Below, piece by piece: positions 88 through 6,632 of a stretch of 52,926 nucleotides of DNA. The stretch is from IMG/VR virus record IMGVR_UViG_3300009498_000007, positions 1-52,926 of that record; one strand, written 5' to 3'. This DNA comes from a virus. Its lineage: Duplodnaviria > Caudoviricetes. The notes under the pieces were generated by a model that did no database searches, was not told the DNA's origin, and saw only the letters and a program-made list of their open reading frames with translations. Made by a program: the position numbers and the translations under genes. Position 1 is the stretch's first letter; every line of letters begins with the position of its first letter.

Positions 88-1857
88 ATGTTTAAAATAA
101 AAGACTTAACTGTAAAAAACTTTATGAGTGTAGGTAATAGTACCCAAGCGGTTAATTTTAACCGCCAAGACCTCACGTTAGTGCTGGGCGAAAACTTAGA
201 TCTTGGTGGCGACGACAGCGGTGCAAGAAACGGAACAGGTAAAACAACTATACTAAATGCGTTAAGTTATGCGTTGTACGGTGAAGCACTTACCAAAATA
301 CGTAAAGATAATCTTATCAACAAAACAAATACCAAGAATATGTTGGTTACACTTGATTTTGAAGTTGATGGTAACGAGTATCGTGTTGAACGTGGTCGAA
401 AGCCTAATCTTTTTAAGTTCTATGTAAATGCACAAGAACAGGAAATGACCGACGAAAGCCAAGGCGATAGTAGACAAACTCAATTAGAAGTTGAACGTTT
501 GCTACGTATGAGTCACGAAATGTTCAAACACGTTGTAGCACTAAACACATACACTGAACCATTTCTAAGTTTAAGAGCAAATGATCAACGTGCTTTGATT
601 GAACAACTGCTTGGTATTACTATATTGAGTGATAAAGCAGACAATCTCAAAGACTTGCAAAAACTCACAAAAGATGCTGTAACGGAAGAAGAATTTCGTA
701 TCAAAGCAGTAGGAGATGCCAACGAAAGAATTGAACAGCAAATTGATAACTTGCGTAAACGTCAACGATTGTGGTATGCTCAACATGACGAGTCAATGGA
801 AAAGTTTACTAAAGGTATAGAACAGTTATCTAAAATTGATATTGATAATGAACTAGTAATACATAACAAGTTAGACAAATGGAATGAAAAAGAAAAAACG
901 TATAACGAAGCCGAACGTTGGGTAGCAAGTGCATGGAATGATACGCAAAAACAACAAGACCTAATAGATAGAATTGATAAAGAAATAGCACTACTCAAAG
1001 AACACAAGTGTCATTCGTGTGGACAAGACATTCATGATGAGAAGCAAGACGCACTTTTAAAGAGCAAAGAAAAAAATAAGAAAACAGCAAATGATGCGAT
1101 TATTGCTAACAGTCAAAAAGAAGAAGAACATACCAAAGTAATGTCTAAACATAGAAATATAGGAGATAAACCAGAAACGTTTTATCCAAGCCGCGATGAT
1201 GCTATTGAGCATAAAAACAATCTAGCCAACCTTGAAACACAACTAGCTAACAAAGAAGCAGAACAAGATCCGTATGCTGAACAGATACAAGAAATGGAAA
1301 CTGCTGGTATTGAAAAAATTGATTATGACAACCTCAATGAATTAGTAAATATAAAAGAACATCAAGAGTTCTTAATGAAGTTGTTAACAAACAAAGATAG
1401 CTTTATACGAAAAAGAATTATTGATCAAAATCTAAGTTTTTTAAATTCACGTTTGAATGTTTACTTAGACAAGATAGGGCTTCCGCATCAAGTGAAATTC
1501 TTAAACGATTTAAGTGTAGAAATTACAGAACTAGGCCGTGACTTAGATTTTGATAACCTAAGTCGTGGGGAACGCAACAGGCTTATTCTAAGCATGAGCT
1601 GGAGTTTCCGTGATGTGTGGGAAAGTTTATATCATCCAATCAACCTACTGTTCATTGATGAACTTGTAGATAGCGGAATGGACAGTTCAGGTGTAGAAAA
1701 TGCACTAGGTATACTTAAAAAAATGAGCCGTGAAAGCAATAGAAGTGTTTGGCTAGTGTCACACAAAGACGAACTAGCTGGTCGTGTTAACAATACGTTA
1801 CATGTTGTAAAGGAAAACGGCTTTACCAGTTATAACACGGACGTTGATATTGTTTGA
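88..1857 (+). CDS. gp46: Recombination endonuclease ATPase subunit (Rad50/SbcC-like, T4 gp46)
   Basis: N-terminal KNFMSVGN, Walker A NGTGKTT, coiled coil with CHSC zinc hook, signature LSRGE, Walker B LLFIDE, H-loop VSH. Confidence 0.93.
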   Translation: MFKIKDLTVKNFMSVGNSTQAVNFNRQDLTLVLGENLDLGGDDSGARNGTGKTTILNALSYALYGEALTKIRKDNLINKTNTKNMLVTLDFEVDGNEYRVERGRKPNLFKFYVNAQEQEMTDESQGDSRQTQLEVERLLRMSHEMFKHVVALNTYTEPFLSLRANDQRALIEQLLGITILSDKADNLKDLQKLTKDAVTEEEFRIKAVGDANERIEQQIDNLRKRQRLWYAQHDESMEKFTKGIEQLSKIDIDNELVIHNKLDKWNEKEKTYNEAERWVASAWNDTQKQQDLIDRIDKEIALLKEHKCHSCGQDIHDEKQDALLKSKEKNKKTANDAIIANSQKEEEHTKVMSKHRNIGDKPETFYPSRDDAIEHKNNLANLETQLANKEAEQDPYAEQIQEMETAGIEKIDYDNLNELVNIKEHQEFLMKLLTNKDSFIRKRIIDQNLSFLNSRLNVYLDKIGLPHQVKFLNDLSVEITELGRDLDFDNLSRGERNRLILSMSWSFRDVWESLYHPINLLFIDELVDSGMDSSGVENALGILKKMSRESNRSVWLVSHKDELAGRVNNTLHVVKENGFTSYNTDVDIV

Positions 1858-2872
1858 CATATCTGAATTACATATTGAAATTAGCAGTAGATGTGTGCTT
1901 AAATGCCCGCGATGTCCTAGAACTGAACTCAGCAAAGAACTAAAAGACGTTCTTAATACTGACTATTCACTCACTGACTTCAAACGTATATTCACTCCGC
2001 TTGTGTTAGACAAAGTAGAACGTATCTTGTTTTGTGGCGACAAAGGTGATCCAATATATGCAAAAGATTTCTTGCAAATTGTGCAGTATATCAAAGAGTA
2101 CAAACCAAATCTTAGAATTAGTATTACAACAAACGGCAGTTATAAATCAAGTTCCTGGTGGACTGAACTAGGAGAATCTTTATCGCCTCTTGACACTATT
2201 ACATTTAGTGTTGACGGACTTAACTCAACTAAAAACAACATGTATCGTGTTAATAGTGATATGCTGTCTATTATTGACGGAATGATTGCAATTAGCAAAA
2301 TATCTGAACACAAAAGACCGTTTATGGTTTGGAGTACTATAAGATTTAGGTTTAATCAAGACGATATACAAAAAAATAAATTTGTATTTCGAGCTAAAGA
2401 ATTAAACTTTGATAGATGGCAACTGGTTGAAAGCACCAAAGTTGGAAGTATTGATCAACAGTACTTAGATGAAAATGGGTACGACCATCTTGAGCCTATA
2501 AATATTAACGAAGCAAGTTCATTGAAAGTATATAAAAAACATTCACATTCTTTGTCAAAAAGAAAAGAACACGTTAATTATATACGTGAAGCTGAAAAGA
2601 ACAAACTAAATGGTAAAGACAGACCTTGGCAAAGTTGTTTACGTAAAGAACAAATACCAATGATTGATGTTGATGGTAAGTTTTATCCTTGTGCTTGGTT
2701 TAATAGTGGTTACATACCAAATGCTTTTGTTGAGAAATATGCAAACAAAATCAACATACGTAAAAACGGATTTGAATCAGTGATAAACAATTCGTGTTGG
2801 AAAGAGTTAGAAACTCAATGGTTAATGGCTCCGTTAGAAATTTGTAAATTGAAGTGTTATAAAAATGCCTAA
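1844..2872 (+). CDS. Radical SAM protein with C-terminal SPASM/twitch-like Cys cluster
   Basis: CVLKCPRC (CxxxCxxC), GDKGDP, TTNG, FSVDG; C-terminal C...IDVDGKFYPC...CKLKC; TTG start uncertain. Confidence 0.85.
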   Translation: MILFDISELHIEISSRCVLKCPRCPRTELSKELKDVLNTDYSLTDFKRIFTPLVLDKVERILFCGDKGDPIYAKDFLQIVQYIKEYKPNLRISITTNGSYKSSSWWTELGESLSPLDTITFSVDGLNSTKNNMYRVNSDMLSIIDGMIAISKISEHKRPFMVWSTIRFRFNQDDIQKNKFVFRAKELNFDRWQLVESTKVGSIDQQYLDENGYDHLEPININEASSLKVYKKHSHSLSKRKEHVNYIREAEKNKLNGKDRPWQSCLRKEQIPMIDVDGKFYPCAWFNSGYIPNAFVEKYANKINIRKNGFESVINNSCWKELETQWLMAPLEICKLKCYKNA

Positions 2873-4160
2873 TAAAAATATATTTTGTAATATTCCGTGG
2901 TTTGAACTGAACATTAATAATGATGGAAGTTTTGATCTGTGTGGCTGTCAAAATGATAAAATTATCAACACTGAGTTAGGTGAAGAATGGAATATCAAAA
3001 AGATGACCATTGACGAGTATTGGAATAGTACTCGTATGCAAGAGAAACGTAATATTAAACTTGGTGACACCGTTGATCCAATGTGTAAGATGTGTCAAAT
3101 GAAGGACCAAGCTGGGTACACCAGTGCTAGACAAAAAGAAAATTTAAAAAGTGTTATTTTCCAAGATGCATTTGATCGTAGTTTTGAGCAAAGTCCGCAT
3201 AAAGAACTTTTTACTGAAGTAACTGAAAGTAACATTCACAGTTTGCATCTAAACATTGGGAATACATGTAACTTAGCCTGTAAGTTTTGTGCTCCAGAAG
3301 CGAGTTCAAGAATTGCTAGTTTTCAAAGATCAGCTAAATGGATTCCTGAAACATGGAAACTAGAACCGTGGATTAAAGATGCAGTTGCTTATCAAAATTT
3401 TAGAGATTGGTTTGATAACAATTACAAACATCTTAAAGTTGTACATCTAATAGGTGGAGAGCCAGCATTAATTGATGAGTTTGCTGATTTAATTGATTTA
3501 TTCAGTGAACACGATATGAAGCATTTAAACCTAAGTTTTACAACAAACGGAACTTATACATATAATGAATATGCTAAACAATTTAAAAAATTTAAACGAG
3601 TTGAAATTGGTATTAGTATTGAAACAGCAGATGAAAGCAACAACTATATAAGAACTGGAAGTAATATTGATGAAATATTAGAAAACATTACTTCCATGCA
3701 AAAGAAGATGCCATTTGTTGATTTTGCATTCAGAACAGTACCAAACTTGCTTAGTGTTGGACGCTACCACACTCTGCTAAAAGAGGGTCTAAAAAGACGT
3801 ATTCCAATTGATGCAAGTTACCCACATAGACCAAGTTGGATGATGTCAGAACTACTGCCAGACGGGCATAAAGAGCTCGCTATTAAACATCTACAAGAAT
3901 TTGCAGACAGTATTAAACTAGACAGTAAAAAATTTAATAACACTAAAAATGCTAACAACGTTGAACTATCTCTTAAACGTGAAGCTGAAGCATTAATAAA
4001 ACACTTGCAACGACCAGTTGGTGACGAAGACGAAGCATTTAGACGTAGAGCAGAGGCCGCAAGTAGAATAGCTACACAAGACAGGTATCACGGAATTAGT
4101 ATATTTGATAGTATTCCAGAATACTTTGGATGGTTAAGAGAGCATGGATACAGTAATTAA
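2865..4160 (+). CDS. Radical SAM protein with N-terminal SPASM/twitch-like domain
   Basis: N-terminal FCNIPW..INNDGSFDLCGC...CKMC; central CNLACKFC, IGGEP, FTTNG, ISIE. Confidence 0.87.
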   Translation: MPNKNIFCNIPWFELNINNDGSFDLCGCQNDKIINTELGEEWNIKKMTIDEYWNSTRMQEKRNIKLGDTVDPMCKMCQMKDQAGYTSARQKENLKSVIFQDAFDRSFEQSPHKELFTEVTESNIHSLHLNIGNTCNLACKFCAPEASSRIASFQRSAKWIPETWKLEPWIKDAVAYQNFRDWFDNNYKHLKVVHLIGGEPALIDEFADLIDLFSEHDMKHLNLSFTTNGTYTYNEYAKQFKKFKRVEIGISIETADESNNYIRTGSNIDEILENITSMQKKMPFVDFAFRTVPNLLSVGRYHTLLKEGLKRRIPIDASYPHRPSWMMSELLPDGHKELAIKHLQEFADSIKLDSKKFNNTKNANNVELSLKREAEALIKHLQRPVGDEDEAFRRRAEAASRIATQDRYHGISIFDSIPEYFGWLREHGYSN

Positions 4161-4584
4161 AATTAAGCTCAAGCCAATTTGGCACATAGATCCTCCTGAG
4201 TTTTGTATTGACTGGGACGGTGATTGGCTATTCAATGATAAGATTGAAAAAGAACAAGAATTTACATTTCGTGTTGAAGGAAAGACCGGAAAACATGAGT
4301 TAGGATTTACTTTGCTTAACAAAAACGATAACGATACCGTTACTAAAGGCAAAGAAATTATCAAGGATAAAGCAGTCTCAATTGAATCAGTTTCAATCGA
4401 AGGGTTTGAATTTGATAGCTTTATGCACTTGATTGAGTATAAGGATCAATATAAGAGAAAAAAGAAGAAATATGGTAACTACGTATGCTGGAATCAACGT
4501 TGGGTTTTACCAATGGAGTTTCCAGTTTTCACCTGGATTCATAAATTAGAAAATTTAGGGTGGATCTACGGAGACACTATATAG
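4144..4584 (+). CDS. Hypothetical protein, overlapping the radical SAM gene
   Basis: 146 aa ORF, ATG overlapping upstream stop, Trp-rich C-terminus. Confidence 0.7.
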   Translation: MDTVIKIKLKPIWHIDPPEFCIDWDGDWLFNDKIEKEQEFTFRVEGKTGKHELGFTLLNKNDNDTVTKGKEIIKDKAVSIESVSIEGFEFDSFMHLIEYKDQYKRKKKKYGNYVCWNQRWVLPMEFPVFTWIHKLENLGWIYGDTI

Positions 4585-4588
4585 TAAT

Positions 4589-5029
4589 ATGTCGTGGACT
4601 TACAATGATCAACTTGTAACAGAATTACCGGAAGATTGTGTAGGTTTTGTTTACTTAATTACTAATACTGAAAGTGAACGCAAGTATATTGGTAAAAAGC
4701 TAGCCAAGTTTGCTAGAACAAGATACCGTGTTGTTAAACTGAAGAATGGTAATAAAAAACGCAAGAAGATCAGAGATAAAGTAGACAGCGACTGGCAAGA
4801 ATATTATGGCTCATCAAACGAACTAAACAAAGACATCGAAGCACTCGGCAAAGACTGCTTTAAACGTGAAATACTTTACTATTGTTACAGCAAGGCAGAG
4901 TGTAGTTACGTTGAAGCAAGAGAACAATTCAGGCACAAAGTATTGGAATCTGATAACTGGTACAACGGACTTATCCGTGTTAGAGTTAACAGAAGTCAAC
5001 ACGTCATAAATGAAAACAATCAAGATTAA
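4589..5029 (+). CDS. Compact GIY-YIG family endonuclease
   Basis: GFVYLITN...RKYIGKK (GIY-YIG), YYGSS, catalytic-type Glu in YVEAREQ, WYN; basic insert RTRYRVVKLKNGNKKRKKIR. Confidence 0.85.
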   Translation: MSWTYNDQLVTELPEDCVGFVYLITNTESERKYIGKKLAKFARTRYRVVKLKNGNKKRKKIRDKVDSDWQEYYGSSNELNKDIEALGKDCFKREILYYCYSKAECSYVEAREQFRHKVLESDNWYNGLIRVRVNRSQHVINENNQD

Positions 5030-5437
5030 GGCTTACAAGAGCTCTGTTTAGTCGAGGTAGCTCGACTCGTCAAGATACTGCGTGAAAAATTCGCCGTTGG
5101 GTGTGACGTTGCTCAAGGAATAATGCTAACTTTAGGCTCAAATGATGTGGCTCTGTGAGACAGATACAACCACAATTGACTACATGCTGGTTGGATGTGT
5201 GTAGAAGATACCGTTGATACGTGAACGCTAGAGTAAGGGGTACAGATTAACCGCCTCTGTATAGGAAACTATAATCTCTTCGAACCAACTGACTGCTGAT
5301 ACTCGGATGATGCTATCACAGACAACATTCACCCGGCAACGGGTGAATTATGACTACTTCATCTGGATGATACTAGAATAAATGTTAAAAAAAAGTTTAC
5401 GAAACGACAGTGAGTAAACAGATCACGTAAGTGATCT
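5030..5437 (+). ncRNA. Candidate large structured non-coding RNA (family not recognised)
   Basis: No ORF in track; ~45% GC over 5031-5370 (hand count); perfect hairpins 5050-5067, 5260-5273 (GAAA loop), 5327-5348 (GCAA loop), 5420-5437 (GTAA loop); GNRA loops and G-U pairs read on + strand. Confidence 0.6.
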
Positions 5438-5673
5438 TAATAGAATGGCAATTTACTTTGCTTAGTTATTTCTAAATTACTATCTATAATTTTACCAATT
5501 AGTTTACGTTCAGCTTGATCAAGATTGTGTGCTTCTGTGTAAGTTAATCCACCACGCATGTACCAACACATTCTTAAGAGCTCTTCTTTTATTGCCTCGA
5601 CTTCTCTGTCAAACCCTTTTAAAAAGGATATGACGTCTTGCTCAGTTTTTAATTGGAGGAGGCTTCTGCGAAA
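5437..5673 (-). CDS. gp51-like C-terminal frame, probably reached by -1 frameshift from the gp26-like gene (alternatively a 44 aa ORF from ATG 5571)
   Basis: Stop-free frame FRRSLLQLKTEQDVISFLKGFDREVEAIKEELLRMCWYMRGGLTYTEAHNLDQAERKLIGKIIDSNLEITKQSKLPFY*, TAA at 5439-5437; not in ORF track. Confidence 0.7.
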   Translation of the reverse strand, partial: FRRSLLQLKTEQDVISFLKGFDREVEAIKEELLRMCWYMRGGLTYTEAHNLDQAERKLIGKIIDSNLEITKQSKLPFY

Positions 5674-6632
5674 AAAGATGAGTAATCAAACTCCAATGGA
5701 GCTTCCCATTCATGATTACAATTTGTACATTTTAACTTTAGATCAGCACCGCTAGATGTTTTTTGTATTTCAACAAGTTTGTCTTGTAATTCACGCATTA
5801 CTCCTGCATCAGCATTTTGGAAAAACTCTTTAATAAAATTACCGTCGGTTACTTGTGTGCCGTCTGGCATAACAATAGCTTCAGTACTAGCAGTAATGTT
5901 ATCAAATCCCATATCCATAATACGACTAAAACCATCTGTAAGCTGTTTAGACTTTTCTTCTTCTGGCATGTCCATATCAACCACAACATTATTAATACGT
6001 TCTTCTTGAAAGCGTAACTGACTTAATCTTGTTATTGCATCATAGTACTGTGGCTTTAATTTAAAACCTAAATCACCAATTTGTACTGGAGTATTGTAGT
6101 CTGGCATTGTAATTCCAGCTAAACGTTGTCCTAGTGGAAGACTATATGTGTTTTCGTGCTCGCATTTTGGGCAAGTTGAATTGACATCCATATCTTCTCC
6201 AAAACTTGCAATACGAATAGCAATCAATAGTGCGTCGGTATCAATACTAGGCATTCCCCAAGCATCTCTTACTGATGGACAACAACTTTCGATTACACTA
6301 ACCATTGATTGTCCATTCATTAATCCATCTGGTGTACGTAATGCAACTTCATCTTTTGCAGTCATTGCAAAAATTGGAACTTCTCCTGTAGCAGGAAGTT
6401 CTAGTGCATTTGGTTTCCAGTATTGTCCTTTGCTAGGCAAAGCTAAATGAATCTTTGGTTGCCTAAAGTGTTTGGCAAGTGGATTTTGCGGTTGCTCTGG
6501 TATCTGGGGTGCTTGTTGAGGTGCTTGTTGTGGTGCTTGTTGTGGTTGCATGTTAGCAAAACTAACATTTTGTGGTCCAGGTAACGGTACACCAGCTGGA
6601 TTTGGCTGGTTTGGGGGATTTTGATTTTCCAT
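5649..6632 (-). CDS. Baseplate hub assembly / tail assembly chaperone (T4 gp26-like)
   Basis: LPSKG, MTAKDE, LLIAIRIASFGE, two CxxC pairs (CPKC, CTNC); Pro/Gln-rich N-terminus; divergent from tape measure gene. Confidence 0.75.
   Translation of the reverse strand: MENQNPPNQPNPAGVPLPGPQNVSFANMQPQQAPQQAPQQAPQIPEQPQNPLAKHFRQPKIHLALPSKGQYWKPNALELPATGEVPIFAMTAKDEVALRTPDGLMNGQSMVSVIESCCPSVRDAWGMPSIDTDALLIAIRIASFGEDMDVNSTCPKCEHENTYSLPLGQRLAGITMPDYNTPVQIGDLGFKLKPQYYDAITRLSQLRFQEERINNVVVDMDMPEEEKSKQLTDGFSRIMDMGFDNITASTEAIVMPDGTQVTDGNFIKEFFQNADAGVMRELQDKLVEIQKTSSGADLKLKCTNCNHEWEAPLEFDYSSFFAEASSN
5670..5676 (-). other. -1 ribosomal frameshift slippery heptamer T TTT TTC
   Basis: In-frame X XXY YYZ heptamer ending 6 sense codons before the gp26-like stop; -1 frame is open for 77 more codons. 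Confidence 0.65.

Follow-up and report, generated by a model that had tools for sequence, protein, structure and literature searches.

A conserved RNA-like element behind a jumbo-phage nuclease gene changes places with a Rep-like gene in bacterial islands and may be a replication-initiation module

The question raised by this locus is whether a large non-coding gap behind a small nuclease gene holds an RNA, and whether that RNA belongs to the nuclease. The locus lies in a stretch of 52,926 nucleotides (nt), called the window below, which is the whole of the DNA analysed: IMG/VR record IMGVR_UViG_3300009498_000007, a 15%-complete virus record of a jumbo myophage, whose portal is ~50% identical to the portals of PA5oct/Paride, Phosso and Atu_ph07 and ~46% identical to those of Asteriusvirus-type phages. 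An earlier inspection of the letters, made without database searches (the sequence-only reading), had proposed that a compact GIY-YIG nuclease and the structured region behind it form a dedicated nuclease–RNA system, and had named a structured origin as a fallback. We observed that the gap carries a conserved RNA-like element, that the nuclease is its exchangeable neighbour and not a dedicated partner, and that in bacterial islands the element swaps with a Rep-like gene, which is the strongest clue to its function. With a probability of about 0.5, we consider it to be a module for transcription-driven initiation of replication, acting in cis in the way the ColE1 preprimer does.

The gap was largely as described earlier. 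It spans 5030-5436 (407 nt) and is the largest gap of the window that is free of open reading frames (ORFs); the coordinates and hairpin sequences reported for it were correct when checked against the window. It is also GC-richer than the other spacers (43% GC overall and 44.7% for 5031-5370; the next seven gaps have 25–34%). The folding of this single sequence was modest relative to shuffles, with z values of −1.75 for the + strand and −2.49 for the − strand, and both strands were alike; because of this, the case for structure rests on comparison. An Rfam search of the window gave zero matches at the gathering score and two chance-level ones (E 0.67 and 2.1), and ARAGORN detected neither a tRNA nor a tmRNA in it. 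The earlier judgement that the region is not a tmRNA, RNase P, 6S RNA or group I intron agrees with these searches, in which group II introns and known ribozymes were likewise unmatched.

Related elements were found in more than 240 phage loci. Among 70 viral loci with homologues of the nuclease, 28 carry a related non-coding element and 42 are without an RNA match. Pattern scans for type 2, for type 1 and for type 2 in metagenomes each yielded at least 120 loci, and in the last of these scans 117 of 120 were confirmed among the matches listed. The phage elements fall into three subtypes having one common core and differing 5′ modules. For the subtype of the window, 1a, an alignment of 36 sequences gives 13 helices with 64 pairs, in which 90.3% of the cells are paired, as compared with 76.8% in shuffled and 40–45% in slid alignments. 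Both sides change in 44 of the 64 pairs, and 0 of 500 shuffles come as high as the real alignment; as the structure was drawn from covariation in the same data, this test leans to these data. The conserved, covarying structure that was looked for downstream of homologous genes is thus present, and the gap is a large, covarying, doubly pseudoknotted RNA-like fold of ~340 nt on the + strand, followed by a hairpin tail.

This fold begins with a variable 5′ module (5039..5114, covariation helices 1-4), composed of a closing helix (5039-42/5111-14), a hairpin (5050-67) and a helix at 5068-72/5104-08. It continues with a hairpin having a conserved TGAAA-like loop (5146..5174, helices 5 and 6) and with hairpin X (5180..5204, helices 7 and 8), the loop of which (5189-94) makes pseudoknot 1 with 5285-90. 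The conserved core (5213..5290, helices 8-12) holds pseudoknot 2 (5213-18/5246-51), helix D (5230-33/5276-79), helix E (5236-40/5254-58), hairpin H (5260-73) and the 3′ strand of pseudoknot 1, and beyond it hairpin F (5327..5348, helix 13) stands between two identical 7-mers, R1 and R2. The order is therefore hairpin X, strand C, D, E (whose loop forms pseudoknot 2 with C), hairpin H, D′, pseudoknot 1′, R1, hairpin F and R2. Covarying counterparts exist for the helices that the sequence-only reading had placed at 5050-67, 5068-5108, 5146-74, 5180-5204, 5260-73 and 5327-48, and five of the six pairs of its pseudoknot GGTTGG/CCAACT change on both sides. Its second pseudoknot, CGGATGA/TCATCTG, turned out to be private to this genome, as the homologues keep both segments identical and not complementary; in place of its inner stem TCTGT/ACAGA the homologues use another register. 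Pseudoknot 2, helices D and E and the twin 7-mers had been overlooked.

Two resemblances to known RNAs were rejected. In the RNase P-like P4 and group II intron look-alikes, the loop pairs with an upstream strand in covarying variants, and Rfam returned nothing; for a box C/D kink-turn or TIGR-like reading, the pairings vary across subtypes. The linker GTGAA (5221-5225) complements and covaries with the 5′ strand of hairpin F (5328-5332), so an alternative pairing or switch is possible. Long AT-rich palindromes with a CATTAAC...GTTAATG-like centre are inserted in hairpin H at three loci (L003:3690-3740, L008 and L035), and also in a type-2 hairpin; these are possibly a small mobile palindrome.

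In subtype 1b and in the bacterial islands described below, the Rfam family Polynucleobacter-1 (RF01718) stands in place of the window's 5′ module. At its gathering score of 37 bits the window has no match, and relatives of subtypes 1b and 3 score 69–115 bits. Using nhmmer, the window's gap finds four subtype-1b loci (L008, L013, L015 and L028) with which it aligns through the core, and the whole window RNA is homologous to the RF01718-bearing RNAs via this common core. A covariance model of the type-1 core also finds four of seven type-2 loci (E 0.05 or better). With blastn, neither the window RNA nor an island RNA matched anything in cultured phages. A helix-order descriptor matched 8–60% of shuffles, chose the wrong helices and so gave no discrimination.

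Cultured relatives have a non-coding gap at the syntenic place, beside an Endo VII gene in Ecwhy_1, GAP32 and PBECO4 and beside a divergent PF24608 gene in PA5oct and Phosso; in RaK2 and XaC1 the element is present, and no nuclease is annotated next to it. The Ecwhy_1 element matches 72 records of cultured enterobacterial phages, one of them, Sharanji, growing on E. coli K-12. In six of six aligned cultured-phage elements, hairpin F lies between twins of at least 6 nt that vary in concert, and five core helices are paired in 93.5% of the cells with 8 double changes; the order of the core helices is the same in islands and cultured phages. The gaps of PA5oct and Phosso are structured, and the full core could not be mapped there. 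In Phosso, an RNase HI gene lies directly 3′ of the gap (L588:2600-2986), which would suit a role in replication.

The element also carries a pair of twin segments, both reading GGATGAT in the window (R1, 5305..5311; R2, 5365..5371; + strand, from the covariation alignment and the sequence) and lying 47–68 nt apart across loci. Among 261 distinct loci in which the twins were parsed, R1 and R2 are identical at positions 2-6 in all 261, at position 1 in 259 and at position 7 in 255, and at position 8 in 83. As many as 24 different 7-mers occur among these loci, so the twins differ between phages and match within each; position 6 is a nearly fixed A. No consistent complement of the twins was found in cis. 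In a complete 355-kb genome (G001), where the element is single-copy, the twin 7-mer is not depleted (58 and 28 copies) and no inverted pair occurs within 30 nt. The template strand would be the one partner that always matches the twins: because the template-strand complement of R2 changes automatically with them, only the identity of the twins would need to be conserved. R2 is likely the 3′ end of the RNA core.

Identical direct repeats flanking a hairpin would also suit a template on which a reverse transcriptase jumps between the twins, in a DRT2/DRT10- or telomerase-like manner, and DRT10 is described, in the accessible part of its source, as having a pseudo-symmetric non-coding RNA. However, RVT_1 is absent from five of five records including the complete G001, where there are no extra copies of the element, and we find this reading hardly credible.

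Behind R2 lies a tail (5387..5437, + strand, from motif comparison), which consists of an A8 tract, a GA-mismatch hairpin (5395-5419) and a perfect hairpin (5420-37). The latter, earlier counted with the structured region, is indeed present but belongs to this separate tail with GNA/GNNA loops and not to the core. In 216 of 257 loci, the 160 nt that follow R2 contain a GA-GC-loop-GC-GA motif on the same strand, against 35 on the opposite strand and a background rate of 0.006 per 160 nt. These counts were made with a regular expression outside which the window's own variant falls. GATA, GCAA, GTAA, GTTA and GNA dominate among 182 tail loops (mostly GNNA/GNA), and such a pattern is typical of single-stranded DNA hairpins. 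The loose GA motif is present 24 times in G001, with the flanking stem seen only at the locus copy in the contexts viewed. In ColE1, the same GA hairpin motif is found on the RNA II strand ~135 nt past the origin, along with two G6 runs, and we take this motif to be pas. The available part of PMC5778457 describes pas as a hairpin bound by PriA. It is likely that the tail is a single-stranded-DNA signal on the displaced strand; its A tract could instead be a terminator for the convergent late genes.

The functional clue came from bacterial genomes, where nine of 18 checked loci of a loose pattern were RF01718. These matches lead into the full element, with the same helix order, 95.5% of the cells paired, 9 double changes in 9 sequences, the twins and the tail. 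The islands in which they reside span ~9 kb and encode an integrase, a short tyrosine recombinase and a divergently oriented DUF6641 gene, and TAAATA is conserved in them. A search from the protein side recovered 26 DUF6641 loci from 15 of 401 genomes. Behind the divergent TAAATA, the slot is filled by an RNA of this kind in 11 of them (4 of subtype 3, and 3 and 4 of two further subtypes, 4 and 5) and by an ORF with motifs of the TLT/HxH/YxxK type in 7; none has both, and in 8 the contents are other or truncated. HUH-Rep-type motifs were read by eye in all seven ORFs; Atlas places one of them at 0.97 in a cluster with 16% PF23343, and a PHROGs search of these Rep-like ORFs returned nothing. 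Two 17-kb Rep-type regions gave zero RNA matches, the short tyrosine recombinase follows in both RNA-type and Rep-type islands, and three starred forks of a DUF6641 tree (24 rows, rough support) place a Rep type next to an RNA type. A scan of 22 island proteins detected no Rep or primase family; two RNA-type islands (L583 and L584) encode a homologue of the T4 clamp loader (phrog_168). DUF6641 was not found in five phage records, in a search that had no positive control. The small chromosomal islands likely borrow the module in order to replicate when a helper phage infects.

Some further features of the islands were noted. Subtype 5 (L617:2059-2400, L618:1033-1341, L624:2033-2413 and L641) consists of TAAATA, a basic ORF of 100-130 aa without a family, a structured RNA with twin-like segments and a GA hairpin. 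Behind DUF6641 in L622 and L632 there is a third filler, neither RNA nor Rep-like, made of ~200 nt of GAGT/ACTC-rich hairpin-like repeats and then an ORF. L583 comprises two related tandem islands 8.9 kb apart (G011:C15:183766 and 192645), each with DUF6641 and a subtype-3 RNA having the same 6-7 nt twin. Island proteins at L584:7671-8075 and L585:3519-3815 start with MRISEI and MKIKEI, like ORFs behind some phage RNAs; we presume that these starts may be capsid-targeting, as in T4 internal proteins.

The exchange with a Rep-like gene, the tail and the twins together make the former fallback, a structured origin, the best-supported reading. In ColE1, an upstream G run of the RNA pairs with a C run of the template. 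The part of PMC5043065 available to us describes priming by the RNA II preprimer and helicase loading on the non-template strand of this plasmid. In a similar manner, a phage promoter would transcribe the locus, and the transcript would fold into the core whose pairings are evident from covariation. The core would present R1, which would pair with the template-strand complement of R2 behind the polymerase; the hybrid could persist as an R-loop, and its 3′ end could serve leading-strand synthesis. The displaced strand would then expose the A tract and the GA hairpins for loading of a helicase or primase.

Several points weigh against the replication-initiation reading, beginning with the fact that its functional part is built on sequence comparison. 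In G001 the GC skew does not switch at the locus and tracks the direction of the genes, although a switch is not required of a one-way origin if the genome is circularly permuted. TAAATA may be a promoter of the late type, whereas early or middle promoters serve the origins of T4. With regard to the twins, parsing relied on flanking anchors and left 58 loci unparsed, and as the type-1 search pattern fixed R1 positions 2-6, the type-1 loci inform through positions 1 and 7, which switch together. Homology across clades is not formally established: the covariance model of the type-1 core had no match among the island or cultured-phage elements, for which homology is based on the RF01718 module (subtype 3 only), the helix order with few varying pairs, and synteny. 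Among the 11 island RNAs, the seven of subtypes 4 and 5 were recognised by eye, their hidden Markov model matches being so by construction, and subtype 5 is the least certain. PF23343 (REP_ORF2-G2P) matches two of three scanned island ORFs below the Pfam cut-off (E 3e-4 and 5e-4), and the four non-coding RNAs given in the accessible part of the PA5oct report lie away from the syntenic gap. Lastly, 14 runs recorded as RNA hold part of the stretch, and four were examined as contigs, which give no strand, ends or level and so offer a weak hint of transcription: X10 (4990-5321) and X7 (4802-5265) lie mostly over the RNA and extend into the gene end, the region is covered in full by X1, X11 is limited to the gene, and the uncovered parts are no evidence of absence.

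The same contigs bear on the possibility of a late RNA that works in trans, in packaging or head assembly or as a scaffold (pRNA- or GOLLD/ROOL-like), through which the islands would hijack the virion pathway of their helper and in which the twins would be symmetric multimer contacts or homodimer sites. The ornate fold and the confinement of X10 and X7 to the RNA and gene end fit such an RNA, as does the assignment of the promoter to the late type, and satellites commonly exploit packaging. Against it, X11 covers the gene and not the RNA, the exchange with a Rep-like gene and the DNA-type tail are left unexplained, and a protein site accepting both variants should tolerate single mismatches between the twins, yet these are rare. 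We consider this function unlikely, though it deserves to be kept in sight.

The exact positional replacement of an HUH Rep-like gene could also mean that the RNA takes over the chemistry of the Rep: alone, or together with a nuclease of the host or the phage, it would introduce a nick into the template at the twins for a rolling-circle start. The doubly pseudoknotted core and the sharp 7-nt window with its nearly fixed A are in keeping with this. However, no catalytic motif was identified, Rfam gave no ribozyme match and priming from an R-loop needs no new chemistry, so nicking by the RNA appears doubtful. A broader form of the initiation reading, which we put forward tentatively and would not yet favour, is that the element is an ancient RNA-only initiator of RaK2/121Q/PA5oct-like jumbo phages and their satellites, which reads its own template by means of the twins, makes a 3′ end by R-loop or ribozyme nick, and is interchangeable with a protein Rep. 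Our literature search did not reveal how replication starts in these giant phages.

If the element initiates replication, what is the nuclease beside it? The gene (4589..5029, + strand) encodes a protein of 146 aa that matches PF19835 (SegE_GIY-YIG, E 5e-33) and PHROG 447, a family often misnamed NAD synthetase. The GIY-YIG motifs are intact in the homologue alignment, with Y22, Y33, G35, E109 and N126 invariant, and DNA-recognition domains are missing, as had been noted. The basic insert in the compact catalytic domain is present too, but RNA-less homologues also have it. A PDB sequence search gave no match under E 0.08.

The RNA usually stands right behind this gene. Of 80 type-2 loci, 76 are preceded by GIY-YIG and 4 are without upstream DNA; of 80 type-1 loci, 72 are preceded by it. 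Insertions at this joint are few: the nuclease–RNA gap exceeds 300 nt in 24 of 209 distinct loci, as compared with gaps above 330 nt between gp46 and the nuclease in 71 of 165 and above 450 nt between the RNA and the hub in 84 of 129. The scarcity of insertions fits shared transcription, and the two are likely co-transcribed. This adjacency, the compact basic protein and the pseudo-symmetry of the twins would be expected if the RNA bound or guided the nuclease as OMEGA RNAs do, with the twins guiding a dimer to an inverted target.

The distribution of the two partners argues otherwise. Among 169 RNA loci with 1.5 kb of upstream DNA, 162 have GIY-YIG, 5 (type 1) a PF24608 nuclease, 2 neither and none both, and 7 of 46 true type-2 metagenome loci are without GIY-YIG in 1-1.5 kb. 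In a tree of 81 of 162 proteins, the topology ignores both the RNA subtype and the 7-mer: the closest group of the window enzyme (100/99) includes neighbours of type-2 and of type-1b RNAs, its starred clade spans three RNA subtypes, and eight RNA-less nucleases form another starred clade that lies within the RNA-linked ones. Those RNA-less nucleases (L016-L018, L023, L024, L029, L034 and L036) are 65–70% identical to the window's and are followed by a 350-aa gene; a gene transfer into another phage group is likely. In cyanophage P-HM1 and phage Melnitz the nuclease gene sits in dense coding DNA, and in L038 and the Endo VII phages the nuclease gene found there points away from the RNA. PF19835 is absent from four of four complete genomes of cultured relatives tested, Endo VII and PF24608 are absent from three of three GIY-bearing complete genomes (the Endo VII control was itself detected only below the cut-off), and no GIY-YIG gene was found in the RNA-bearing islands. 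No long variable guide segment was found either, as only the 7-nt twin varies freely (in cis and in G001, host genomes being outside this check), and G001 showed neither the inverted pairs nor the depletion of the 7-mer that a guided nuclease would lead one to expect. Hence the dedicated nuclease–RNA system of the sequence-only reading is not supported: the RNA occurs beside PD-(D/E)XK, Endo VII or unrelated genes, and we judge a guide function to be quite improbable. Phage-type loci with gp46, nuclease and full RNA (L516, L500 and L508) were also seen in metagenome-assembled genomes labelled Polynucleobacter and Bacteroidetes, which may be a clue to hosts or mis-binning.

Since it is mutually exclusive with Endo VII and PF24608 in the same slot, the GIY-YIG protein would do the job of a resolvase; it is likely a junction-resolving enzyme, the Holliday-junction role being suggested by gene exchange. 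It may instead have a free-standing homing role, of the kind treated in the part of PMC10055350 available to us. As junction-acting enzymes adjoin the element in most contexts, one may ask whether it is a transcription-dependent site of recombination or concatemer resolution, in which hairpin F and the twins form branched DNA for the phage resolvase or, in islands, the short tyrosine recombinase. The requirement for identity over 7 nt does resemble recombinase overlap regions. On the other hand, the twins are only 47–68 nt apart, covarying pseudoknots rich in G-U pairs speak for an RNA, no nuclease is annotated beside the element in RaK2 and XaC1, and the short recombinase is found in Rep-type islands as well; a recombination site is therefore improbable.

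The locus is bracketed by a gp46-like SMC/AAA ATPase gene (88..1857, + strand, from family searches) and a convergent baseplate hub gene (5649-6632, − strand), and two radical-SAM/SPASM genes are inserted between gp46 and the nuclease in the window (1844-4160). A promoter-like hexamer, TATATA, is located 5 nt ahead of the leaderless ATG (4576..4591, + strand) and is likely the start of the nuclease-plus-RNA transcript. The spacing pointed out earlier recurs with TAAATA in six island ORFs. A sigma-70 scan of the window gave no signal above chance.

The RNA module is real, conserved and largely uncatalogued, and both the full RNA and the island swap are undescribed in the papers found in our literature search. 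Nature seldom indicates what a large orphan RNA does, and a conserved RNA that exchanges with a Rep-like gene would be such a case. Polynucleobacter-1, a 141-nt fragment, would then become part of a module of 400-500 nt; a satellite family not recognised so far would come into view; and PHROG 447 would gain a testable role as a resolvase.

Among known systems, the catalytic domain of T4 Seg/I-TevI (PF19835) shares its intact GIY-YIG motifs with the window nuclease, which differs in having no DNA-recognition domains. The junction resolvases Endo VII (PF02945) and PDDEXK_15 (PF24608) occupy the same slot in relatives, one family per complete genome tested, and the activity of the window enzyme is a prediction. 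OMEGA and HEARO RNAs accompany IscB, TnpB or HNH proteins. The present element resembles them as a large pseudoknotted RNA beside a compact nuclease gene, but it is single-copy and syntenic, has no transposon ends or long variable guide, and its nuclease is exchangeable and does not co-evolve with it. Satellites such as PLE and PICI have helper-dependent origins, and phage satellites with these or with an HUH Rep (PF23343) are like our ~9-kb integrase-bearing islands in their phage-type promoter and replication slot; the islands differ in alternating a Rep-like gene and an RNA in this slot, and their dependence on a helper is presumed. The accessible part of Weinberg et al. 2010 (PMC2864571) presents Polynucleobacter-1, with 16 members, as 'probably' an RNA and 'probably' cis-regulatory. 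Within our literature search, a single paper mentions Polynucleobacter-1. That family equals the 5′ module (~135 nt) of subtype 1b, whose core is common with the window RNA, and of island subtype 3, whereas its 141-position model lacks the core, the twins and the tail, and the window has another 5′ module. ColE1 RNA II differs in sequence and fold (the covariance model has no match in ColE1), has an RNA I for which no equivalent was found here, and carries as repeats G runs ~250 nt apart in place of mixed 7-mers ~55 nt apart. What the two have in common is their anatomy: a promoter, a long structured RNA, an A tract, a GA hairpin on the non-template strand, and a short sequence that is present twice.

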